DNA from: Escherichia phage V18
Direction: 5' to 3' (one strand)
Sequence record: NC_041937.1
Length of the DNA stretch: 64,000 bases
In this document: positions 1 through 57,038 of the stretch, piece after piece
Layout: each line of letters begins with the position of its first letter
Numbering within the stretch: the stretch's first letter is position 1
Notes under the pieces: generated by a model
Databases searched by the model: none
Told to the model about the DNA's origin: nothing
Seen by the model: the letters and a program-made list of their open reading frames with translations, nothing else
Made by a program: the position numbers and the translations under genes

Positions 1-71
1 TTCCTGCACGGCGGTCGCGTGCTTCTTTACGAGTTTTGAAGTGTTCGTAGATGAAAATCATAACTGTCTCC

Positions 72-1007
72 TTATTTGGTGTTATTCTTTGTATCAATCA
101 GCTCACGGTATTCAATCATAGCAGGGGTGTCCCAATATTTCAAGCCTACATGCTTCAAAAGTGGATATTTCTTTTCCAATCTTGCAATATAGGCCTTCCC
201 GCATTTGACTCGGTTGGCGATTAAGATTTTGGCACGATGATTTAGCTCACTATGCTTCCACGCGGTGTTACCTTCCCACTTGTGGAAATGTGGCCGATAA
301 TTTCCAAAATCTTGCATGGGGATAATTTTCCCCAATTGTCTATACAGGCTGTCATATGAAGTTTCATTTGCTGCGCGAGTCAGTAAGAATTTCCAAGCAT
401 CCTCTTTCAACAAATGTTCCACACTCTTCTCTGTAACATACTGGCAATCAGGATCAGTCCAAAGCAGACGAGATTCTGATACCAGGTACAGATCTTCCCC
501 TTCAGGAATCTGAAGTGCCGCACGCACACGGTCATAATTTTGCTGGTAGATGTTACTCAGCTGTCCCAGCCAACAACTTCCACGTTGGATATCTCCCTCA
601 TAAGGAATGCAGTGCTTAATCTTCTTGAACTCTGCCTTAGTAATACGCTCACGACGGAAGTAACCATCCTTCTCAAGTTTTTTAACCCAATAGCCTGGCT
701 CATAATGAGTTTTTGTTTCACCTTTCTTCGCAGGTCGGCGAGGTAGCTCTGATAACAATTTGACCGTATCTGCAAAGAACGGATGGTGTGCCGCCTCTTT
801 AAACTCTTTCACCAGATCCGTGTTCCGGCAATAGAAAACGTTGCGTCCGGTGATCTCGCTTAAGTAGTTACACTTATTTCGGTTATATTTGCCGTCTCCG
901 TCGTTAAATACTAAATAGACTCCCCGTAAGAATTCTACCTTTCCGTAACAAGCGTAACCTATGCGGCCTTTATTTAAGCCGCCAGCGAAGATCTCACAGT
1001 CCCCCAA
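72..1007 (-). CDS. hypothetical protein; N-terminal acidic FNDGDG motif that may be Toprim-like; lies 5 nt downstream of the GHKL ATPase ORF in a different frame
   Basis: 311-aa ORF from track; motif MGDCEIFAGG...VFNDGDG loosely resembles Toprim E/DxDxG signatures; no HMM run. Confidence 0.45.
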   Translation of the reverse strand: MGDCEIFAGGLNKGRIGYACYGKVEFLRGVYLVFNDGDGKYNRNKCNYLSEITGRNVFYCRNTDLVKEFKEAAHHPFFADTVKLLSELPRRPAKKGETKTHYEPGYWVKKLEKDGYFRRERITKAEFKKIKHCIPYEGDIQRGSCWLGQLSNIYQQNYDRVRAALQIPEGEDLYLVSESRLLWTDPDCQYVTEKSVEHLLKEDAWKFLLTRAANETSYDSLYRQLGKIIPMQDFGNYRPHFHKWEGNTAWKHSELNHRAKILIANRVKCGKAYIARLEKKYPLLKHVGLKYWDTPAMIEYRELIDTKNNTK

Positions 1008-13456: not shown

Positions 13457-13469
13457 CTATAAAAAGAAA

Positions 13470-13493
13470 GGGGCCAAACGGCCCCTTTTTTTT
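13470..13493. terminator. bidirectional rho-independent terminator
   Basis: GGGGCC-AAAC-GGCCCC hairpin flanked by A-run upstream and T-run downstream, between convergent genes. Confidence 0.6.
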
Positions 13494-13502
13494 ACCCCCT
13501 TG

Positions 13503-14495
13503 TTAACGAGAAAAGGTTGCGTAGGCTTCTAGACGATACTGCTGGTCACCAGGGAACATAACACCTATAGAGGCTGTCCCTAGAATCCTGCCTTCCTTTC
13601 CAGACTCCATTCTGAACCCTACCCATCCTGAACTCCTTGCAGCCTCGATGTTGTCGCTATACCCGAAAGTGGCAAGATCGTCAACACCAGCCCCAAACAG
13701 CAACTGAAGCTGACTTCTAGGAAGCCCTATAATTTCAGGAATATACGCACCAAAGTACACCATCTGCCCTACCTTAGGACCGCTGCCGTACTCCATCGGT
13801 TTGCTTGTAGAGAAAGTCTTCATACCAGAAGTACCTGCCGGATTAGGGTATGCCCCGTTTGTTGCTGTACCTATCCACATTCTCCACTGTGGTGCCATCT
13901 GTTTGACAGTAAACGATGTTGAAGACGTTTTGCGGCCTGCATCATCTGTAACTACAAACCTTATAGTGACATTCCCAGGAGCTTTAAATGTTACCAGTCC
14001 TGTGGTAGCATCCACTGTTGCAATGTTGGTATTACTACTTTCCCAAGTCTTTCTGATTCCTGGCACATTGGAAGGGGTAATAGAAGGTTCCTGCATCTGC
14101 AGTTTACCACCTACAATCCCTATCCCGTTTCCTGGATTATACAACGCACCAACCTCGTCTACAATGTTACCTGCCTTGAGACTGTACTTTTTAGAGAAGT
14201 TGTAAGTGCCGTTATATGTGTGTGTCCCTGAGAAGGTTACATCTGCCTTGCCGTTGGAGATGCAAACCAAAGCATACTTCCTGTCAGGCAACTGTGCCCC
14301 AGTTTCTGGGTGAGTTTTACCAACCTGGAACACACTCGGGTCAGTGGAGTCATGGCTATCACTAATGGAGTTTGGGCCACCCATCAGCTGTGACAAACAA
14401 TTCCTTACCCATGTCCAGTTATTATCACTGGAGAAGTCCACAGTCAAATCGAATACAACCCACTCATTTGGCTTCCATACAGGAGTTGTAATCAA
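13503..14495 (-). CDS. structural protein with bacterial Ig-like (Big_2-type) domain
   Basis: 330-aa ORF; segment ATVDATTGLVTFKAPGNVTIRFVVTDDAGRKTSSTSFTV resembles Ig-like domains. Confidence 0.5.
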   Translation of the reverse strand: MITTPVWKPNEWVVFDLTVDFSSDNNWTWVRNCLSQLMGGPNSISDSHDSTDPSVFQVGKTHPETGAQLPDRKYALVCISNGKADVTFSGTHTYNGTYNFSKKYSLKAGNIVDEVGALYNPGNGIGIVGGKLQMQEPSITPSNVPGIRKTWESSNTNIATVDATTGLVTFKAPGNVTIRFVVTDDAGRKTSSTSFTVKQMAPQWRMWIGTATNGAYPNPAGTSGMKTFSTSKPMEYGSGPKVGQMVYFGAYIPEIIGLPRSQLQLLFGAGVDDLATFGYSDNIEAARSSGWVGFRMESGKEGRILGTASIGVMFPGDQQYRLEAYATFSR

Positions 14496-15175
14496 CTTAC
14501 CAACAGAAGGGTTGGAGACTGTTCAGTGATCAGGGCAGAGTATGCCAGAGTGCCTAACTGCATGGTCTGGCTTGCTGTCCTCACTACCTTAGAATCAACA
14601 TCTGTGAAGTTGTTGATGATTTGGAATGTACCATAAGTGTTTTTACAGGTAATTCTGGCGTTCAGTGTGTCAATCTTCCTCACATCTGCCATAGCAGTGT
14701 TAGACACAGAGAAGTCAGAAGCTCTAGCCGAGTTTGCTGCAACAGCTGGATCAACGTTGAGAGTTGCGTTGAACTGGCAGGCAGGAGTAACCAGTAGCTT
14801 GTTATCACCTATTTGCTTCCATGAAACACTTTGAACAGGGAGATTCCATTTAATACCTGAGAAAACTTTAGCAACCCTTGGTCCCAGAGCTCCAGTCCTG
14901 TTGTCTTTACAGCTCATGGACATGGTGATCGTTGACGGAGTGGCCTGACCAAACAATTGCTGTGCTTTTGCAGAGGACATGGTGTAGAAATTGTCCTTAA
15001 CAAACTCATCAGCCGCTAACGATCCGTCAGATCTCCACCATTGCACCTGGTAGCCTGTCTTATCCCAGCCACCAACCTGCTTCAAGTCCTCCCAAGAGAT
15101 TTCCAGATCCCCAGTGGTAGGTTGATTGCCGCAGTTCCCGGTGTTCCAGATGACCATATTGGGATATCGAACCAC
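14492..15175 (-). CDS. hypothetical tail-associated protein (start uncertain; 94-nt overlap with upstream ORF)
   Basis: 227-aa ORF from track. Confidence 0.4.
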   Translation of the reverse strand: MVRYPNMVIWNTGNCGNQPTTGDLEISWEDLKQVGGWDKTGYQVQWWRSDGSLAADEFVKDNFYTMSSAKAQQLFGQATPSTITMSMSCKDNRTGALGPRVAKVFSGIKWNLPVQSVSWKQIGDNKLLVTPACQFNATLNVDPAVAANSARASDFSVSNTAMADVRKIDTLNARITCKNTYGTFQIINNFTDVDSKVVRTASQTMQLGTLAYSALITEQSPTLLLVS

Positions 15176-16047
15176 GCTGGTTTAACAGACTGCACTGCGT
15201 TAGGTCCTATTGCAGCAGCAAGTTGTTGACCCATCAATACGCGAGTATCTTTCACATAACCCCACTCGATCATAGACCCAGAGTAACCCTCTTTCTTATA
15301 CGCGGATGACCCATTCAAGTGAATAAGTCTACTTGTGCCGAAGTTATACGCCCCACCACCATTATCATCTGCAAAATTGTATATGATTCTATCCCTAATA
15401 TCTTTCCATGCCCTACCGCCAATCTCGTAGTCATGGTCATAGCATCTTTGCAGCGTTGTCCAGCAGATGATTGCCATCCTTCTACCGTTACTGAAGCCGA
15501 AAGCCTGATCGTTAAGCTCTCTCCACAAGTAGCAGTTGGTGGTCCACATGGCTCTGTGAATGTTGTACCAGTTTATAGATTTGGCAGAGTTGTTCCACTG
15601 AGTTCCGGGTAATTCAGGCCATACTGCATTAACCAGCATGTCCTCTGTCCCTGCATCTATCAAGAAGCCTCTCACCTTCTTACCCATACCTACTCTGTCT
15701 TTGGCAATCCATGCGCCAAACAATCTCAGTTTTGGACCGTAAACATCCTCTTCGCGATGCTCAAGAGAAACATACTTTAGATATACCGTAGGGTCACCGT
15801 AGGTGTCGGATATTCTTTTATCCCCTGCATATGGTGAGTCTGCAAACTGGTAGTGCAGAGCAACTTCAAAAGGATGTGTGGATGTTCCGTTTTCTGCAAG
15901 AACTTGCTTCCCGATCAGATCGCATTTAATAATCATCACGACACGTTTGTACCCCCAGGTTAACGGAACAACAAACGGAATCAGGCAGTTCACCAGGTCC
16001 CCAGAATATTGCTCCGGAACAGTTGTAGAACCACTTGTTAGGATCAT
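15082..16047 (-). CDS. hypothetical tail-associated protein
   Basis: 321-aa ORF, ATGA overlap with upstream gene. Confidence 0.45.
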   Translation of the reverse strand: MILTSGSTTVPEQYSGDLVNCLIPFVVPLTWGYKRVVMIIKCDLIGKQVLAENGTSTHPFEVALHYQFADSPYAGDKRISDTYGDPTVYLKYVSLEHREEDVYGPKLRLFGAWIAKDRVGMGKKVRGFLIDAGTEDMLVNAVWPELPGTQWNNSAKSINWYNIHRAMWTTNCYLWRELNDQAFGFSNGRRMAIICWTTLQRCYDHDYEIGGRAWKDIRDRIIYNFADDNGGGAYNFGTSRLIHLNGSSAYKKEGYSGSMIEWGYVKDTRVLMGQQLAAAIGPNAVQSVKPAWFDIPIWSSGTPGTAAINLPLGIWKSLGRT

Positions 16048-18065
16048 AGTTGTTCTTGAAGGTCTGAACCTCGTTTGCCTGTTTCAACAAGAAAACATGC
16101 CTGTCGATCAGCATATCCAGGTTGGTTAAACCACTGATTGCAAGAATAGTCCCGCATATAGTCATAATCAGAGTATTTGTTGTTTGCATCCTCGTTCCAA
16201 CACAAGTTCAGGTTGGTGCCGCCCATGCACACAATATATTCTTCAACGTATTTATCACTTCGGGTGGGAATACCTATGAACCATCTGTTAACAGGTTCGT
16301 CCCAAGCTGTGCGCTCATCTTTAACGCAGATAGCAATCCAGTCATGTGTTCCTGTTTTCTTGCACACATCGCGCTTCATACCGTAGTAGAACTCTTTAGT
16401 ATTTGGCTCAGGTGCGCTTATCAGGTAGCTCCACGCCTGGTCTGCATAGGTTCCGTTGGTGCGAGGGTCATGATCAAAGGCATACATGAGGATCCTTTCC
16501 CCACCAAGATGTTCGCCAAGAGTAACTTTGACATTCACATCGCCGTAACCGTTGCGAACAACATCCATATTGTCAATAGAGATGCCTCTAGGGGTGTAGG
16601 CAATTTTCAGTGAGTTATCCTCACTAGTGCCACCAAGGGTGATCCCTATGTTATTTGTTGTCCCGTCGGCATATCTTACTGTAGCTTCCCAGCGTATTCC
16701 GAAATATCCTGCATCATGGCTAACAATTTTCAGTGTACGAGCACCAGAGTTAGGTTTTCCAGGATCAGGCCAAGGGTTTGGGTGTTCGTGAACAGTCAAC
16801 GATGTCCCGTTTTGTTCATTGACCTGCAACATTTTACCACCTCTGCCGTTTGGGTTGAACTCCCATAAGGCCTGTGTCTGCACCAAGTTATCATAGGTAT
16901 TTCGTCGCTGATTATAAATCTCTTGGGTAACATCATAAGTTACTGATCCAGCATCCATTCTGTGGAGTCTGACCATATACGATGTATCCCCTTCTACTGC
17001 AGGCTGAGCCGCATTCAGCCCAAAGTATACAGTATCATTAACATGGAACTGTTTGTTTCTACCGGCAGTATGCCATTTACCATCAGACGGGTACGCTGGG
17101 ACGATAGTGTTCCAGTTCAAAGTCCTTGTTGTGTGGGTTCTGCCTGTGCCATGTTTGTCATGATAGGTTCTGTTAACATTTCTGTTATATTGGGTAACAA
17201 CAACTTCGTTGGCCCCGCCGTGGTTCCAGTTGGTGGAGAATTGGTAATTTGCATCTGTAACAACCGTGCCTGCAGCATTTACCAGCTCAATCTTGTCAAT
17301 AATGAACGTAGCCCCTTCTGGCTGAGGCTTCAATTTCATCTTGACCGTGTCACCAATGTAAATATTGCTAACGCTGCTAACACCGTTAACGTCGAAAATA
17401 TCATCAACACCCCAACTATCTACCGGGACATTTTTATACCAATTCTCCGGAATCTCTGTGAACCCTTGGCTGTTAAGTCTGCCGCCAAAGAGGTTATTAG
17501 ATCCTGAAAAACTACCACGTGGTATTCCTGACCACCAAAGCTTTCCATTTACCACACAGAATGTGCCTAAGAAACCTTCCCTGTGGATCCCTTGAAAATA
17601 AACGCTTTCTGTCCAACTTACTGGCTCTGTCTGTTCAACAAACTTAGCTGTTGCCAGCGCTCTGTAATGAATAAAATTGGCCCTAGGGTTGTTGTTTGCA
17701 GATTGAGCACCAATATCATTACACAAGTTGCGAGAGAATCCACGATACTGCTTAGTGCCATTGTTGAAGAAAATGCCACTTGTGCCGTACCCACGAGCCA
17801 TTATTACCTCATGAACATTCCAGGCTGTTTCGCTCGGATAGTTTATAGGGCTACGATCCCCAGTGCGGCACTCTCCGAACTTGTTATAGCCAGTAATATT
17901 AAGCTGACCATCATCAAAAAGTATAGCTAAGCTATTTACATAGGATACTGTGTTGCTTGTACCATCACTGTTGTCTATTGGGTATGACAGAACAGCAAGT
18001 TCCTTAATTCCACCCCTCTTATCGAGGAAATGACGACCAAGTTTTAGCAAAGGGATTGGAAGCAT
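16044..18065 (-). CDS. large tail fibre/tailspike-like protein
   Basis: 673-aa ORF rich in G/N/T/S/Y; position in fibre cluster. Confidence 0.5.
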   Translation of the reverse strand: MLPIPLLKLGRHFLDKRGGIKELAVLSYPIDNSDGTSNTVSYVNSLAILFDDGQLNITGYNKFGECRTGDRSPINYPSETAWNVHEVIMARGYGTSGIFFNNGTKQYRGFSRNLCNDIGAQSANNNPRANFIHYRALATAKFVEQTEPVSWTESVYFQGIHREGFLGTFCVVNGKLWWSGIPRGSFSGSNNLFGGRLNSQGFTEIPENWYKNVPVDSWGVDDIFDVNGVSSVSNIYIGDTVKMKLKPQPEGATFIIDKIELVNAAGTVVTDANYQFSTNWNHGGANEVVVTQYNRNVNRTYHDKHGTGRTHTTRTLNWNTIVPAYPSDGKWHTAGRNKQFHVNDTVYFGLNAAQPAVEGDTSYMVRLHRMDAGSVTYDVTQEIYNQRRNTYDNLVQTQALWEFNPNGRGGKMLQVNEQNGTSLTVHEHPNPWPDPGKPNSGARTLKIVSHDAGYFGIRWEATVRYADGTTNNIGITLGGTSEDNSLKIAYTPRGISIDNMDVVRNGYGDVNVKVTLGEHLGGERILMYAFDHDPRTNGTYADQAWSYLISAPEPNTKEFYYGMKRDVCKKTGTHDWIAICVKDERTAWDEPVNRWFIGIPTRSDKYVEEYIVCMGGTNLNLCWNEDANNKYSDYDYMRDYSCNQWFNQPGYADRQACFLVETGKRGSDLQEQL

Positions 18066-18085
18066 TGTGTTCTCCAGATAAGAAA

Positions 18086-18108
18086 ACCGCCCCGTCAGGA
18101 GCGGTTAG
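18086..18108 (-). terminator. putative terminator hairpin
   Basis: AACCGC...GCGGTT stem downstream of 18114..19859. Confidence 0.4.
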
Positions 18109-32031: not shown

Positions 32032-33064
32032 TTACTTCAGTTTCTCTTGCAACCCAGTAACAACCTCTGTCAATTTTTTAACCTGCTCCTCAAGGGCGGT
32101 TATTTTATCATCCTGCTCCCTGCAAACCTGGACAAGCAAGCCTGTTACAGCTGCGTAATCCACGCTGTAGAATCTTTCCTCTGTTATCAAAGGAGTTCCA
32201 TCTTGATCAGGGTTTGGGATTTCCTTTCTTTGCACGAAAGAGCTAACTGCTTCCGGCAGCGCTTCAAGCACCTCTTGTGCTATAACACCTGCATAAGGCA
32301 TACCATTCTCTTTCAAGGTGTAGGTATAACCCTTCATCTTACGGATAGCTTCTAACGCATCAGGAATAACAACTATGTTATCTTTCAGGTCTCTGTCAGA
32401 ACTCTGATTGACAGATGTGCAATTCACAGCACCGTTTACAGAAAGATATCTTGATTTATCCGGCAAGGTACCGCAATGCCATACATAAGCTGATTGAGAC
32501 TCGTCAAGAACCTTAAACTCTAGCACGTTTGGACGAGTCCCTGCACTGCCGTTGCCCCAATAATGCTGCCATCTGGAAAGCGTAGTTTCCAGAAAATGCC
32601 ACAGACAACCCGCCAACAACCATTGAACCTTCAGGTCCGTTGACGTTGCCAGCCAGTATTTTGGATGGGTTGTTAGGCCCAAACTGGTTGTTCCAGTCTG
32701 CACCAGTATGACATACAAAACCACCCGGTGCTGAGAAAGTGCCATCTTTGTTGAAGTTGTAGAATCTATGAGCTGTGCCTACAACATCGCGAACGATAAC
32801 TTGACCAGCTTCCGGAGTAGATCTGAACTCTGCCTGGCCTTGCAGTCTTGCACCATTACCACATTTAGAGGTAAAGGTGTTGTTGATCAGATCCTCTGTT
32901 CCTTCTGATGCAGCTTGGAACCCTGCGTTAGAGAACAGTGCTTTTCTAGTGGTCTGACTACCAGGACAAATGTAGTCAATACCGTCTGCCCAAAGCTCGA
33001 CTTTAGGCATGTTCATTTTGCTCATCACTGCATAGCGTTCAGGAGTCCCCAGGTAGTGCCACAT
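32032..33064 (-). CDS. tail fibre distal segment with C-terminal intramolecular chaperone (peptidase S74-like) domain; internal frameshift
   Basis: ORF 32513..33064 and ORF 32032..32745 overlap in different frames; C-terminal SSDRDLKDNIVVIPDALEAIRKMKGY...VIAQEV matches the S74 autoproteolytic chaperone signature. Confidence 0.5.
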
Positions 33065-33163
33065 AGTTCCACCACCAGTGTAGAAACCTGATGTTCCTTT
33101 GAACTCAACCAGAGGTCTGGTGTTTGTTACATCATCACCTTTGATTGCAAGACTTGGAAAGAA

Positions 33164-34963
33164 TCACCTCTGTCTGTCCAGCCACCAGTTCTGTAGTGAC
33201 ACTGTAGTGTAGCACAGTTCATTGGGTCCCCCTACAGTCCTGGCACTGGTACCACCACAAGCTATCGGTAGTGGTTCCCATTTGGCTTTCCGGTTGTTAT
33301 AAACACCCCATTCCAAACTGCCGTTACCGGATTCGTCCATCCCGCCATCCCAGATGACCATCTTGGCGGCTTTCTTAGATCCCCAGAAACCTCTTTCTGC
33401 TCCTGAACTGCGGATCCATTCTCCAAGTCCCCAGTTTGCCAGCTGACCGTTCAGATCACCAACCTGCATATATTTAGGACAATCTAAGACCCCATCCTCA
33501 CGGAAGCCTAAATATCTATGAGTTTCAGATCCTTTTGCGCCTTTGTGCAGGTGGATTGTCAACCAAGCCTTATTGTCGTTTCTTACCTCAGAGTAGATCC
33601 TATACCCATGCTCAAGGACACCGTCAGCGCTGTATTTGTCCCCGTTAACAATACCTGATGCTGACTTAACATCAGCAGAACTTTGAGACAGGTAAAGGTG
33701 CCCAAAGGTAGGGGAGTTTCTAGACCCGAGACCGATGTGTGCTCTAAAGGTATCATCGTTACGAGGTCTGACCATCGGCTGCCATGCAGTCCACTGATTT
33801 GTGTTGGCCTGGTAGGTTCTCAAATACCAAACATCTACGTTAGAGAATGGATAGTATTCCTGACGACAACCTGTACCGCCGTTAGCATTGTTCTGCCAAA
33901 CAATCAAGTGACCAGCACCAGAACCTGCAGGGTAACCATTTGCCTCAGTTGCATAGGCAGTCATCGGCTGGTAGTACACACCATCCTGATTACCAGTTAA
34001 GTTATTGATATTGAAATTTGGCTCAAGGGCTGCACGTTGCTTATAGAAAGCCCCCAAGTTAATGCGTGAACCTGCGGCATCCCTGGCACCTGTGCCGCCT
34101 TGCTCTATAGCAAGAGGTTGCCACGAAGCTGTTTGTTGGTTCCACATACCCCAACGGCCTGTTGCATCAAGCTGCAAGTACCCTGCTGTGTTTAAATCAT
34201 CTCCAGCACGGATAACTGTTCTTGTTGGGTTGTTTGCCTCTAGGCGTTTAAATTCATCACGAAGTGCTATTCTTTTTGTTGTTGCTACACCGTTGGTTAC
34301 TGCAATGGTATACATGGCTCCGGTGGTAGCGCCACGGAAAATACCATCAACAGTTGTAGTATCACGACGAGATACCACACCATTCAGAAATTTTTCACCA
34401 GCTGCTACAGAAGGGTAGTTGGTAGTTCTTCCCTCTTCAATAACTGCAGGGCCAACAAAGTTATCAAGGTGAATAACATCGCCTACAGTGTGCACTGTAC
34501 CAAAATCTACACGCTGTGCAAGGGCTTTAGCATCGTTAGCTGTCTGAACAGTAACATCCATTACATCCTGGACAGACTGCCCTTCGGCTGTCATAATCAT
34601 AGATGCGCCAATGGTAGATTCCAGCTCCTCCCTTAAGGACGGATCTGTATATACCATCCATGCAGCGTCAGTAATCCCACCATCGGAGTACGGTGAAGAT
34701 AGTGCAGGGACAGTGTGTGGAAATTCGCCTTTCCAACGCAGGTAGAGGTCTTCCTCTTCGAAGTAGGCAAAATCCATTGGGCCGTTTAACTTACCACCTT
34801 CCTTAAAGGAGATTACATGAGAAACAGTCCCATCCACATGGACAACATCGCCAATTTTTACACGACGAGTCAGGTCTGGTTGTTGAACAACCAGGTAATC
34901 ATCCTCTGTCACTGCGGTAGTGGCAGGAAGAGATTCAATTCTGACAACTTTAATATCAGCCAT
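33164..34963 (-). CDS. tail fibre protein (N-terminal anchor plus shaft)
   Basis: 599-aa ORF; N-terminal DDYLVVQQPDLTRRVKIGDVV shared with 37598..38266; ends at a TGA that is in frame with the downstream fibre segment. Confidence 0.55.
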   Translation of the reverse strand: MADIKVVRIESLPATTAVTEDDYLVVQQPDLTRRVKIGDVVHVDGTVSHVISFKEGGKLNGPMDFAYFEEEDLYLRWKGEFPHTVPALSSPYSDGGITDAAWMVYTDPSLREELESTIGASMIMTAEGQSVQDVMDVTVQTANDAKALAQRVDFGTVHTVGDVIHLDNFVGPAVIEEGRTTNYPSVAAGEKFLNGVVSRRDTTTVDGIFRGATTGAMYTIAVTNGVATTKRIALRDEFKRLEANNPTRTVIRAGDDLNTAGYLQLDATGRWGMWNQQTASWQPLAIEQGGTGARDAAGSRINLGAFYKQRAALEPNFNINNLTGNQDGVYYQPMTAYATEANGYPAGSGAGHLIVWQNNANGGTGCRQEYYPFSNVDVWYLRTYQANTNQWTAWQPMVRPRNDDTFRAHIGLGSRNSPTFGHLYLSQSSADVKSASGIVNGDKYSADGVLEHGYRIYSEVRNDNKAWLTIHLHKGAKGSETHRYLGFREDGVLDCPKYMQVGDLNGQLANWGLGEWIRSSGAERGFWGSKKAAKMVIWDGGMDESGNGSLEWGVYNNRKAKWEPLPIACGGTSARTVGGPNELCYTTVSLQNWWLDRQR

Positions 34964-50387: not shown

Positions 50388-51212
50388 TTATTCACCACCT
50401 TTCAGAGTTGCTTTAACAACCAGCTCTGGACGGGTGTTAACTGCCAGCATGGAAGTTTCAGATTCAATCTTCTCTTCACGCAGGTATGCAGAGTGTTTAT
50501 ACCACATGTACAGTTCCTGTGCTGGAGTGTTTGCTTCGTTAACATCGTCTGCCGGAGCAAAGTGCAGCTGGAACATCTGATCAATACCCATCGGCAGAAT
50601 GCGAGCTTCTTTCTTAGGAATATTGCCAGAGATATCTTCGATAAAGGTGATACCTTTATGCTCAAACACACGGTATACGCTGTCTTGACCGCCAGCACCC
50701 AGACGGCGACGCAGAGGTTCCTGAGCAGAGCCGTAATAGGTGTATGCCAGTTCTACCAGAGGGTCATACTGACAGGTTGTGTCACCAGGTGCATAGGATT
50801 TACCCAGAATAGCCTGGAACAGCGCTTTCTCACGCAGTGCTTCATGAGAAACACGGATACGGCGAACAACGCGGGTTACTACGTCCTGAACAGTTTTCGG
50901 AGCATCAGGTGTGAAGTAACGACGGAAGTTCTGAACATCTGCTGCGGTGATGCCTTTGTCCAGAGGGAAGAACGGGATGTTCAGGTTTTTAACCTGAGCA
51001 CGTTCACTACCAACGTAGTTACGCTCACCACCACGACGGCGTGCCGGAATGTCGGTTACAACTTCATCAACACGCTCAATCTGAGCAATTGTTGAGGTGC
51101 CGAGACGGGTTTCGAACAGATCCATACCAGTAATCAGGCGGAATTGACGCGGAACAAGGTCCAGAGTAGCACCTAAATCAACAATGCCAAATTCATCTTT
51201 ACGAGTAATCAT
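50388..51212 (-). CDS. putative major capsid protein
   Basis: 274-aa ORF, codon usage of a highly expressed gene, strong terminator downstream, position after portal/scaffold; short for an HK97-fold capsid protein. Confidence 0.45.
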   Translation of the reverse strand: MITRKDEFGIVDLGATLDLVPRQFRLITGMDLFETRLGTSTIAQIERVDEVVTDIPARRRGGERNYVGSERAQVKNLNIPFFPLDKGITAADVQNFRRYFTPDAPKTVQDVVTRVVRRIRVSHEALREKALFQAILGKSYAPGDTTCQYDPLVELAYTYYGSAQEPLRRRLGAGGQDSVYRVFEHKGITFIEDISGNIPKKEARILPMGIDQMFQLHFAPADDVNEANTPAQELYMWYKHSAYLREEKIESETSMLAVNTRPELVVKATLKGGE

Positions 51213-51296
51213 TTATTTCTCCAAAGTAAAATTGTAGCCAGCATCGCTAGAATCAACTTTGCCGAGCACGATATCAGAATATTGAGCGGTAATCAT
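51213..51296 (-). CDS. 27-aa upstream ORF duplicating the capsid gene initiation region
   Basis: GAAATAAATGATTAC occurs twice (51205..51219 and 51289..51303); uORF MITAQYSDIVLGKVDSSDAGYNFTLEK ends TAA immediately before the capsid ATG. Confidence 0.3.
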   Translation of the reverse strand: MITAQYSDIVLGKVDSSDAGYNFTLEK

Positions 51297-51380
51297 TTAT
51301 TTCCCCCGTTAAACTCTTATGCTTCAGCAGATCCAGATACTCTTTAGTTTTGGTTGCGTCCCTTGATCAGGTTCCCTTCT

Positions 51381-51728
51381 TTATCGAAGAGATCCCAGCC
51401 TACCAATACAAGACTCTGCGTCAGCTTGCGCCCATTCCCAATCAGGATGCTCTTTAGCCCAAGCCTCCTCTTCAATCTCAAAACCAAGCATGTGTGCAAG
51501 TGCTTTAGCATCATCATACCACATATCGAAGAAACGACGCAAGTATTCTTCAAAACTAAGCTCCACAGTAACTTGGCGAAGTGCCTTAACAATATCGTCT
51601 GTTAACTGCTCAGGCTTAAGATCACTCTTCATCAAAAGAGATACAGGTCTGTTGTTAGCGCTATAGCCTTGCGCCTTATGGCACAGGGCAATCCCCTTCT
51701 CTTTAATAGTAATCGTTTTTTCAGACAT
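51381..51728 (-). CDS. head protein (decoration or scaffold-associated)
   Basis: 115-aa ORF between scaffold/protease-like and capsid genes. Confidence 0.4.
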   Translation of the reverse strand: MSEKTITIKEKGIALCHKAQGYSANNRPVSLLMKSDLKPEQLTDDIVKALRQVTVELSFEEYLRRFFDMWYDDAKALAHMLGFEIEEEAWAKEHPDWEWAQADAESCIGRLGSLR

Positions 51729-53873: not shown

Positions 53874-55429
53874 TTAGATAAAACGCTTGAACATAGAAGG
53901 TGATGAGATTGATGGAATCACACAAGGAAGTGCTACCTCCTCTTTCTCCAGGAAATTAATCGCAGAAGCTACACAGTCGGCCCAGTCGTCTTTTCTGTTA
54001 AATGTTGATCTTTCCCCGTTGAATTTTTCAAGTTCAGTCAGAAATGCTTCCAGAGTATCAGGATGGAAACTGGATTTTACAATCCTCACCATTCCTTGTT
54101 GGGCAAGATTGGCAAAAGGTGAGAACCTTGTCAGTTTAGATTTGTTGGAAGGCATTGGGTCTTCTTCAACCCTAAACCCTTCGGCAAGCAAGGATCTGGA
54201 GGAGGTTAAGAACTCACTCTTACCTGCCTGACCGGGGTCCACAGAGAATACGATTATACAATCATCACCATCAAACTGCGCCTGTTTCCTGATGATCACA
54301 TCTCGTTCACCAGCCTTTTTACAGAACTTGCCTTCCAGACCTGTGGAATACCTCCCGTCATCCACGTTCTCAGGACAATAATCCCCGGACAGGTAATAAA
54401 AGCCGTCGCTATCTTTACTTACCTTGACACTGGCGGTAAAGTCAGGAAATTTATTACCGGAAGTTCTCTCGGTTCCTGCTTTATCCCATGCCCTGCAAGA
54501 CACTGATCCAAGGGGTACTCTATCGGCATCACGAAGGAAAGATCTTTGAAAATAGTTTGCACCCTCAGGCTTTGCAAACCAGTTACCATGGAGAAGCTGA
54601 GCTTTTTCAAGCTCGGGCAGACCTTCAAGGAAAGCAAGGTATTCTGGGTTGTCTCTTAAGCAGACAGGATTATCGAAGATTGTTGCGCCTATAAACGAGA
54701 ATGACAACGGTCTCGGCTTGATCTCTACACCCAGTCCGTTAACCGTGGTGTATTTCTCTATCAACTCTTCTTTAGAGTCTCCCCAGATAAATTCACCGTC
54801 GCGTCGGATAAAATATCTTTTCTTACCGCATTTCTCCGGATCTGGATACCCTTCATCGTCCAACCACCACCTAACCAGTTTGGCAAGCATGTGTTCTGAA
54901 TCGGGGTTACAGCTGATAACCATTCTTGATGGATACTTTGACTGAGATCTCAGACGAGACATCAGATAGTCTATCTGCTCCCATTCGAACTGCGTGCCTC
55001 ATCGAAGCAAACCAAGCAAACCATGGTATACTCAAGCCCTTGATGGTTAAGCTTATCTTGTACATACTCCATGTGGCAGTATTTTACAACAGCTCCCTTT
55101 TTGCTTCTATCCCACTTGCCAGTGTTCGGATCAAACCGTGGAAAAATGAACTTATGATCCTTCTCTCTGAACTTTGGCTTAATGTTTTCAGGCAGATCAC
55201 TATAAATAGCTACTGCTTTAGGCCATAGTCCACCCTCACCTTCCAACTGTGGGGTTGTTCTTCGGAACATAACCACAGAGCTGTGGGGGTCATCAATAAT
55301 TTTAAGTGGCATCAATTGCAAGAGGAACGACTTGCCAGACCCTGCGGCACCGCCGATTACCAAAATATCTGCATCGTTTTCGAGGATCATCTTCTGCTTT
55401 TCAGAACACGGTCCGTAAATCTTAGACAT
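53874..55429 (-). CDS. terL: terminase large subunit, split by apparent frameshift at about 54975..54998
   Basis: N-terminal ORF 54971..55429 has Walker A GGAAGSGKS and Walker B LVCFDEA; C-terminal frame is open from 54998 (QFEWEQIDYLMSRL...) and continues in ORF 53874..54962. Confidence 0.7.
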
Positions 55430-56485: not shown

Positions 56486-56531
56486 TTTAAAGGTTCCTTT
56501 TGTTTATATATGTTTAAAGTATAACTGAAAG

Positions 56532-56608
56532 TGGTCTCCACGGAGTGATTCGAACACTCGACCTCCTGATCCCAATGGTTTATCTCTACCAAGCTGAGCT
56601 ACGCGGAG
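56532..56608 (-). tRNA. tRNA-like gene, possible anticodon TGG (Pro), anticodon stem does not pair as read
   Basis: Good acceptor stem, TTCGAAT T-loop and encoded CCA; putative anticodon loop ATTGGGA but flanking stem unpaired. Confidence 0.45.
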
Positions 56609-56619
56609 TATTTATTATT

Positions 56620-56694
56620 TGGTGGCCCTGGGTGGAATTGAACCACCGTCTGGCGATTATGAGTCGCTTGCTTGAACCTTCCAGCTACAGGGCA
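56620..56694 (-). tRNA. tRNA-Met/Ile-like (anticodon CAT)
   Basis: T-arm GGTGG-TTCAATT-CCACC, anticodon loop CTCATAA, encoded CCA; position 1:72 mismatched. Confidence 0.55.
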
Positions 56695-56770
56695 TGGTGC
56701 TGATAGCAGGACTCGAACCTGCAACCTATTGATTACAAATCAATTGCACTACCAATTGTGCTACATCAGC
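56695..56770 (-). tRNA. tRNA-Thr (anticodon TGT)
   Basis: Clean cloverleaf: 7-bp acceptor, D-stem GCAC/GTGC, anticodon stem ATTGA/TCAAT with loop TTTGTAA, T-arm GCAGG-TTCGAGT-CCTGC, CCA encoded. Confidence 0.7.
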
Positions 56771-56775
56771 AAAAA

Positions 56776-56860
56776 GGTGCTAGGTGATGGAATCGAACCA
56801 CCTATGTATTCAACGACCAATAGATTTACAGTCTACACCGCTACCTCTACGGGATAACTC
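56776..56860 (-). tRNA. tRNA-like sequence, Tyr-like anticodon arm (GTA) with long variable region; no acceptor stem found
   Basis: Anticodon stem-loop GTAGA-CTGTAAA-TCTAT and T-arm with TTCGATT loop present; 5' and 3' ends do not pair. Confidence 0.3.
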
Positions 56861-56867
56861 CCCAATT

Positions 56868-56942
56868 TGGCACCCCGTACTGGACTCGAACCAGTGTCAA
56901 CGGCTTAGAAGGCCGCTGCTTTATCCACTAAGCTAACAGGGC
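56868..56942 (-). tRNA. tRNA-Arg (anticodon TCT)
   Basis: Acceptor GCCCTGT/ACGGGGT (with G-U pairs), anticodon stem GCGGC/GCCGT with loop CTTCTAA, T-arm ACTGG-TTCGAGT-CCAGT, CCA encoded. Confidence 0.65.
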
Positions 56943-57038
56943 ACTGGGTGGCTTTCTTTTACACCTTAGCCGCCAGAAAAGGTGGGAGACCATGTTTACA
57001 ATATTACACTGTTAAGCAAAGTTTGTCAAGAAAATATT

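Follow-up and report, generated by a model that had tools for sequence, protein, structure and literature searches.

One lateral tail-fibre gene underlies five overlapping open reading frames in Escherichia phage V18

The open reading frames (ORFs) on the minus strand at 13503..18065 of the sequence analysed here (the window; 64,000 nucleotides of Escherichia phage V18, NC_041937.1) are pieces of a single disrupted gene, the orthologue of the lateral tail-fibre ('Ig-like domain') gene rV5 gp27/FV3_00027. The window belongs to a Vequintavirus, an rV5/FV3-like coliphage, and the underlying gene is an already known Vequintavirus tail-fibre gene. We infer, with a probability of roughly 0.7, that this one orthologue has been fragmented into five ORFs by private deletions that occur window-wide and that are most probably sequencing, assembly or consensus errors. 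The identity of the gene is established by tblastn, MAFFT alignments, a PHROG profile and an ORF restored by padding.

The gene is 4563 nt long in the window and 5634 nt long in FV3, a net loss of 1071 nt that includes the codons for N-terminal residues ~91-316. In a profile search, the four large ORFs match successive parts of phrog_15684 (1878 positions) with E values of 1e-139 to 0, covering positions 317-896 (plus the N-terminus), 1109-1337, 1323-1541, and 1550-1878. Profile positions ~91-316, ~950-998, and ~1056-1106 are deleted in the window. As in FV3, Murica, and CarlMeissner, the gene is flanked by the small convergent ORF gp26 and by the fibre gene gp28 (581 aa). In 400-column bins, the gene is mostly 84-100% identical to its FV3 counterpart in nucleotide sequence, falling to ~75% in short stretches. 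The C-terminal ORF 13503..14495 contains a bacterial Ig-like domain (Pfam Big_2, E=7.7e-9) at ~13941-14084, and the FV3 protein is weakly similar to two intimin chains, 1e5u and 1f00. Sequence searches of Pfam and PDB with the central 1500 aa returned no domain other than Big_2/intimin. In a previous study, gp27 was named the last large lateral tail-fibre gene (Maffei et al. 2021, PMC8594841). An uninterrupted ORF of ~1877 aa is absent in the window, where the gene is distributed over five fragments in three frames. The locus does not represent an intact member of PHROG 15684: either the copy itself is disrupted or its sequence is in error.

The original prediction pointed to a 94-nt overlap between ORF 14492..15175 (227 aa, GTG start) and ORF 15082..16047 (321 aa, ATG start), and our analysis reproduces both ORFs and the overlap (15082..15175). 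It also described all three minus-strand frames as open for more than 80 codons around 15926..16189. A long open stretch of each frame does touch this interval (stop to stop, 18104 to 16046, 687 codons; 16207 to 15928, 94 codons; 16083 to 15084, 334 codons), but the three are open simultaneously only at ~16046..16083, for ~12 codons. By a rough estimate, a stop is expected about once per 20 codons at this base composition, which makes it very unlikely that chance alone would leave alternative frames open for 94-334 codons. These long stretches trace a single gene whose true coding frame has been shifted by deletions. The suspicion that the ORFs are pieces of fewer, larger genes proves correct, as FV3 gp27 (1877 aa) matches consecutive ORFs and its tblastn alignment switches between frames -3, -1, -2, -1, and -3. 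No homologue was found in which the ORFs correspond to complete genes of their own; a single ORF of 1877-1878 aa is present in each of FV3, Murica, CarlMeissner, and two IMG/VR contigs.

The breaks can be placed by combining tblastn hits for the five fragments, supplemented by profile matches for the last three, with MAFFT alignments for the junctions; all lie on the minus strand. Fragment 1 (16100..18065, FV3 residues 1-90 and 317-895) is in the original frame within the 673-aa ORF 16044..18065. Its start codon, ATG at 18065, is preceded by GGAG at 18072-18075, and the ORF terminates 18 codons past a frame-shifting 32-nt deletion (junction 16099..16100, 2 nt microhomology). Fragment 2 (15980..16099, FV3 residues ~898-949) lies within ORF 15926..16189, and this 87-aa ORF in the third frame is a genuine gene fragment. 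A deletion of 158 nt relative to FV3 (junction 15979..15980, 0 nt microhomology) shifts the frame again. Fragment 3 (15122..15979, FV3 residues ~999-1339) lies within ORF 15082..16047, whose ATG at 16047 arises by accident, out of frame, within the ancestral codons. A 1-nt deletion (15121..15122), which turns CCC into CC on the coding strand, separates it from fragment 4 (14506..15121, FV3 residues ~1340-1540) in ORF 14492..15175. A 10-nt deletion (junction 14505..14506, 0 nt microhomology) then returns the frame to the original for fragment 5 (13503..14505, FV3 residues ~1545-1877), which lies within ORF 13503..14495. One terminator-like hairpin (18085..18106, minus strand) precedes the start of the gene, lying where the previous fibre gene ends and matching in position an annotated terminator of Murica, and another stands directly after the stop of the gene (13467..13488, minus strand). 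Because such hairpins occur only at the two ends of the unit, the five fragments share one transcription unit.

All four frame changes coincide exactly with deletions, and the flanks are 99-100% identical to FV3. When the four frame-shifting sites are padded, one ORF of 1522 aa with zero stops is obtained. The frame-shifting deletions total 201 nt, a multiple of three, which puts the C-terminal fragment in the original frame; a return of this kind has a chance expectation of 1 in 3. The other indels preserve the frame. A 696-nt deletion (junction 17813..17814), placed by MAFFT, tblastn, and profile, loses FV3 residues ~91-316, among them some of the N-terminal sequence similar to the 'tail protein' family phrog_11922. 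MAFFT also places deletions of 24 nt (junction 17169..17170) and 153 nt (junction 15804..15805) and a 3-nt insertion of an AAC repeat unit (16182..16184), all on the minus strand. Read in the frame of the homologue, every segment shows mostly synonymous differences and no stops, and the gene has acquired 53 synonymous versus 3 non-synonymous changes on the window lineage.

In appearance, the ORFs could suggest programmed ribosomal frameshifting, transcriptional slippage, or a fibre encoded as separate subunits, as they overlap on the same strand by 4 and 94 nt and include an ATGA stop/start overlap at 16044-16047. However, every frame change is a deletion relative to near-identical intact homologues, and we give these readings practically no chance of being correct. 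Neither an XXXYYYZ heptamer nor a homopolymer of >=5 bases occurs in the three ORF overlap zones, and the frame junctions are not conserved, the eight indels being confined to the window in a comparison with five single-ORF relatives. Missing slippery sequences and non-conserved junctions thus rule out programmed frameshifting. On sequence reading, no Shine-Dalgarno motif precedes the internal 'starts', GGAG being present only before the ATG at 18065. Separate fibre subunits are ruled out by the five homologues inspected, each a single ORF, together with internal starts that lack a ribosome-binding site.

The indels are private to the window. None of the eight is present in the five other sequences of the alignment, two IMG/VR contigs included, and the region that takes up 4.8 kb in the window extends over ~5.87 kb in ~110 phage records. 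The 11 nt and the 32 or 190 nt that the window lacks are present among the matches listed of about 109-113 phage records. The junction sequences have no match in IMG/VR, JGI metagenomes, or GTDB genomes, an exact-protein look-up of two window proteins gave no match in the collections searched, and no copy with the deletions was found in the E. coli genomes or plasmids searched.

Similar damage extends across the window, which carries 65 private deletions versus 9 private insertions. Among indel events in coding sequences, 13 are divisible by three and 29 are not (29/42 frame-shifting), compared with 9 versus 3 in FV3 and 8 versus 3 in Murica (Fisher p=0.0015). Frames are broken in the genes for the large terminase, tape measure, baseplate hub, RIIA, and RNA ligase, ~1.1 kb is absent from the capsid/decoration/gp61 module, and 3 of 7 tRNAs remain. 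The breaks in the terminase, tape-measure, and baseplate-hub genes lie at 54996, 43559, and 39970, respectively, and those in the capsid module at 50763-51394. The ratio of non-synonymous to synonymous changes on the window lineage is 0.18 (FV3, 0.13; Murica, 0.16). Judging from these substitutions, the genome was under normal purifying selection; the indels show no selection on reading frame. The fibre gene is not singled out, because its indel density (~1.75 per kb) is close to the window average (~1.2 per kb). Single-base deletions fall in G/C runs of 2-4 in 15 of 20 cases, against a background of 18.5% (p=6e-8). Dense mismatch clusters, a further possible sign of error, show no excess (5 in the window, 9 in FV3, 5 in Murica) and are excluded from the argument.

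Error is the most probable cause of the fragmentation because the private deletions, unfiltered by selection, also break indispensable genes. A possible source would be coverage gaps closed without Ns, combined with under-called G/C runs. No one sequencing platform is known for deletions of 10-1000 nt as its classic error, and a technical origin would require an assembly or consensus mechanism, itself hypothetical. Repeat recombination and assembly-graph collapse are ruled out as the source of the deletions in this gene by the 0-2 nt microhomology at the junctions. The full gene (~1877 aa) encodes an N-terminal tail-attachment region and the C-terminal Ig-like Big_2 domain. The deletions of 32, 158, 1, and 10 nt displace the true frame and generate the overlapping ORFs and the spot with three open frames, and those of 696, 24, and 153 nt shorten the gene in frame. 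With the sequence as it stands, translation initiated at the real start would halt at 16044 and yield a 673-aa N-terminal stump. Simple read polishing, advised in the original prediction, may fail to repair these frame breaks, because not all four of the frame-shifting deletions are single-base slips.

Real inactivation of this particular fibre gene is biologically possible, because the gene is dispensable in a relative, Bas54, on K-12 and is split in the public records of ime and Alma. Some or all of the fibre-gene deletions would then be real, the fibre being unneeded on the propagation host, and the breaks in essential genes would be separate sequencing errors. In line with this, a transposon screen of the Vequintavirinae phage Bas54 on E. 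coli K-12 found that several tail-fibre genes tolerate disruptive insertions and that this gene is dispensable (10.1101/2025.11.20.689424), ime was isolated on K-12 MG1655, and gp27 is among three fibre genes with allelic variation (PMC8594841). However, eight independent indels lie in one gene with flanks 99-100% identical to FV3 and almost no non-synonymous change, at a density near the window average. The junctions, with their short microhomology, are atypical for slippage or illegitimate recombination, and no length variation at these sites was seen among the matches listed of ~110 relatives. We consider genuine loss of the fibre unlikely.

The excess of deletions over insertions, the unselected reading frame, and the destruction of essential genes and tRNAs would also be expected if the window were the accurate sequence of a dead, non-replicating Vequintavirus copy, a relic or defective genome that decayed through deletion-biased mutation. 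However, the point substitutions show no relaxed selection (0.18 versus 0.13-0.16 in viable relatives), and by a rough estimate at most ~30 neutral substitutions stand beside ~74 indels. In natural pseudogene decay, the balance is the opposite of few substitutions and many indels. Moreover, Vequintaviruses are virulent, no copy occurs in 5,426 complete E. coli genomes, no junction occurs in GTDB genomes or metagenomes, and the junctions are without microhomology. Such a relic is therefore improbable. It is more doubtful still that the sequence is accurate in the sense of a degenerate, non-viable Vequintavirus copy with dozens of blunt deletions and almost no point mutations. If it were, it would point to an unusual deletion-generating process or to a defective virulent-phage genome that persists, perhaps as a relic or as an element dependent on a helper.

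With a technical origin of the deletions as the preferred reading, the consequences are those of annotation. The five ORFs should be merged into one disrupted lateral tail-fibre gene and flagged as low-quality or as a pseudogene; neither a recoding event nor a set of four or five new 'hypothetical proteins' should be reported. The entire record should be treated as bearing many deletion-type errors. The damage also extends to other fibre genes and to the tRNA cluster. Were the deletions real, the genome on record would be non-viable, and an explanation for that would be required. The locus has no bearing on open biological questions, and its value is practical.

The closest known counterparts are rV5 gp27, FV3_00027, Murica gp026, and CarlMeissner bas48_0041, which share with the window gene the same position, a collinear profile match, and the same C-terminal Big_2 domain. 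These homologues are labelled 'Ig-like domain-containing protein' or 'lateral tail fiber protein with intimin domain'. They consist of one ORF, whereas the window copy carries four frame-shifting and three in-frame deletions. In Escherichia phages ime (MN850576) and vB_Eco_Alma (OV101294), the same gene appears as two overlapping CDSs owing to one small deletion each, of 2 nt and 1 nt, respectively. Each of these records has a single event in a gene of full length (5.6 kb), in contrast to the eight indels and the similar damage throughout the window. The programmed -1 frameshift of the lambda G/GT type, in tail assembly chaperones, resembles the window in its overlapping same-strand ORFs in the tail module, but it needs a slippery heptamer that is conserved among relatives, and the window has neither the heptamer nor the conservation. 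In the common laboratory strain of lambda, a frameshift splits the side tail-fibre gene (stf). As in the window, a dispensable tail-fibre gene is seen as adjacent ORFs after a frameshift, but lambda stf results from one real single-base change in a genome that is otherwise intact and viable.

The interval 13400–18200 matches 120 phage records, nearly all of them Vequintavirus (rV5-like coliphages), with FV3 as the best match (94.8%). Among the matches listed, the 4801-nt query covers ~5.87 kb in each record; therefore, the window is short by ~1.07 kb. In the relatives FV3, Murica, and CarlMeissner, the same interval is occupied by a single minus-strand gene of 5634–5637 nt (1877–1878 aa), annotated as 'Ig-like domain-containing protein' or 'lateral tail fiber protein with intimin domain' and flanked by a small convergent ORF on one side and the 581-aa fibre gene gp28 on the other. 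In two IMG/VR contigs, the gene is likewise a single ORF of 1877 or 1878 aa, and none of these relatives carries the pieces as separate genes. Maffei et al. 2021 (PMC8594841) place the rV5 counterpart, gp27, last among the large lateral tail-fibre genes of the locus and count it as one of three with allelic variation. The window copy shares homology, synteny, and the Big_2 domain with the rV5 gp27-like family, but it is not a single ORF. It represents an interrupted version of a gene from a known, well-populated family, the rV5 gp27-like lateral tail fibres (PHROG 15684), and the locus holds no new biology.

The fibre gene (13503–18065) has a mosaic structure: Murica and CarlMeissner match its first 250 nt at 100% identity and are once more the closest sequences over its last ~450 nt (99%), with FV3 99–100% identical in the middle (~16220–14300), a pattern that could reflect natural recombination or chimeric assembly of a mixed sample. 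The PLSDB entry CP057073.1, listed as an E. coli 'plasmid' (non-mobilizable, cattle faeces), matches the fibre gene at 89%; at 137,565 bp it is as long as a Vequintavirus genome, and it probably represents a phage that was assembled along with its host.

In the window, the gene is divided among minus-strand ORFs at 16044–18065 (673 aa), 15926–16189 (87 aa), 15082–16047 (321 aa), 14492–15175 (227 aa), and 13503–14495 (330 aa). The ORF table confirms the predicted coordinates and the 94-nt overlap of 14492–15175 with 15082–16047. The original prediction also held that all three minus-strand frames are open for more than 80 codons around 15926–16189. Each frame does have such a stretch touching this interval (stop to stop, 18104 to 16046 in frame 0, 16207 to 15928 in frame 1, and 16083 to 15084 in frame 2; frames 0 and 1 are also open from 14522 to 13505 and from 15181 to 14494, respectively), but the three are simultaneously open only at ~16046–16083. 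The suggestion that the ORFs are pieces of a larger gene is borne out by the undivided gene of the relatives, and the homology switches frame along the locus. In tblastn, FV3 gp27 (FV3_00027) matches the window with residues 1–90 at 18065–17796 and 317–895 at 17813–16098 (both frame -3), 898–949 at 16123–15968 (frame -1), 999–1339 at 15978–15109 (frame -2), 1320–1540 at 15160–14507 (frame -1), and 1527–1877 at 14558–13506 (frame -3).

By nucleotide alignment, window-only indels that keep the frame were placed at 17813/4 (-696 nt), 17169/70 (-24 nt), 16182–4 (+3 nt), and 15804/5 (-153 nt), and indels that shift it at 16099/100 (-32 nt), 15979/80 (-158 nt relative to FV3), 15121/2 (-1 nt, CCC to CC), and 14505/6 (-10 nt). 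Judging from the indel sites and the frame-shifted gp27 matches, the 87-aa ORF in the third frame is a true gene fragment. The 94-nt overlap corresponds to the distance between the 1-nt deletion and the first stop reached in the old frame. When the four frame-shifting sites are padded with 2, 2, 1, and 1 Ns, a single 1522-aa ORF is obtained, collinear with residues 1–90 and 317–1877 of FV3 gp27. Programmed recoding or separate fibre subunits as the source of the overlapping ORFs are effectively excluded: the padded ORF contains no stop; the four large ORFs align in succession along one profile, phrog_15684 (1878 positions), with the Big_2 domain only in the last; neither an XXXYYYZ heptamer nor a homopolymer of at least 5 bases occurs in the overlap zones; and, by reading of the sequence, no Shine-Dalgarno motif precedes the internal 'starts' at 16047, 15175, and 14495. 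GGAG is found only upstream of the ATG at 18065, and terminator-like hairpins only at 18106–18085 and 13488–13467. Read in the homologue's frame, the five segments differ from four relatives by mostly synonymous codon changes, with no stops, and the single-site changes of the window lineage in this gene are 53 synonymous and 3 non-synonymous.

In a six-sequence alignment, only the window carries the eight indels; the five other sequences diverge by up to ~20%, yet have no indel at these sites. The flanks of the breaks (16220 to 14300) are 99–100% identical to FV3. The stretch over the 10-nt and 1-nt deletions is 11 nt longer, and that over the 32-nt or 158-nt deletions 32 or 190 nt longer, in the records listed of ~109–113 matching. 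Microhomology at the fibre-gene junctions is 0–2 nt, which speaks against slippage, repeat recombination, or assembly-graph collapse.

Damage of this kind extends through the whole window: compared with FV3 and Murica, 65 deletions and 9 insertions are private to it, far above the numbers private to FV3 or Murica. After adjacent gaps were merged, 13 indel events inside CDSs are divisible by three and 29 are not, as against 9 and 3 in FV3 and 8 and 3 in Murica (window versus relatives, Fisher p=0.0015); the window split matches the one third that would be expected in the absence of selection. Relative to FV3 and Murica, single-base deletions split many genes, essential ones included: RIIA (1040), HNH11 (6799 and 6916), distal tail protein (31439), baseplate hub (39970), tape measure (43559), large terminase (54996, adjoining a 9-nt tandem duplication, AAGCAAACC x2, at 55005–55013), and RNA ligase (61597); further sites are 23167, 25996, 47501, and 49906. 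Fifteen of 20 single-base deletions sit in G/C runs of 2–4 (p=6e-8), a systematic, error-like signature. In the head module (50763–51394), the major capsid gene has a 186-nt in-frame deletion relative to FV3, and ~920 nt are gone, taking with them most of the head-decoration gene and roughly two thirds of FV3_00061 (gp61). The two remaining large variable fibre genes are broken as well, both truncated and frameshifted: central fibre J (28444; ~1040 nt lost at one point) and tail fibre 41 (FV3_00041 orthologue, 32458–33228; several deletions totalling ~870 nt, three frame changes). In the tRNA cluster (56530–56950), ARAGORN detects only Met, Thr, and Arg, and FV3 has 7 tRNA-like genes; two tRNA genes are lost to a 401-nt deletion at 56817, which also truncates tRNA-Tyr, and a 9-nt anticodon-stem block of tRNA-Pro is replaced at 56571–56588. 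The window begins 71 nt ahead of position 1 in the FV3 and Murica records (window 1–71), downstream of the rIIA stop; therefore, the record start point differs.

The cause of the breaks is probably technical (probability about 0.7). Substitutions in the window lineage (650 synonymous, 118 non-synonymous; ratio 0.18) are as synonymous-biased as in viable relatives (0.13 and 0.16), indicating that the window genome was under normal purifying selection. Given what is established about the functions of terminase, tape measure, hub, and capsid proteins, a phage with such lesions should not be viable. The window indels come without matching neutral point changes. A dead relic genome would explain the deletion bias, but neutral substitutions are lacking, no copy is present in 5,426 complete E. 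coli genomes, and the window junctions are absent from all public collections searched. All of these findings fit a simple technical model that we propose, in which covered segments or contigs would have been joined across coverage gaps without Ns and G/C runs would have been under-called.

In principle, real deletions in a dispensable, lost fibre are plausible. The Vequintavirinae phage Bas54 tolerates insertions in several of its fibre genes on K-12 (10.1101/2025.11.20.689424), and the public records ime and Alma each have one small frame-shifting deletion in the same gene. However, the indel density of the gene (~1.75 per kb) is near the window average (~1.2 per kb), and selection-free drift of one gene would hardly account for eight indels amid near-identity to FV3. 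The orthologue is annotated as two overlapping CDSs in both ime (MN850576), from a 2-nt deletion, and Alma (vB_Eco_Alma, OV101294), from a 1-nt deletion; these splits are either errors or a sign that phages on laboratory hosts do at times lose the fibre.
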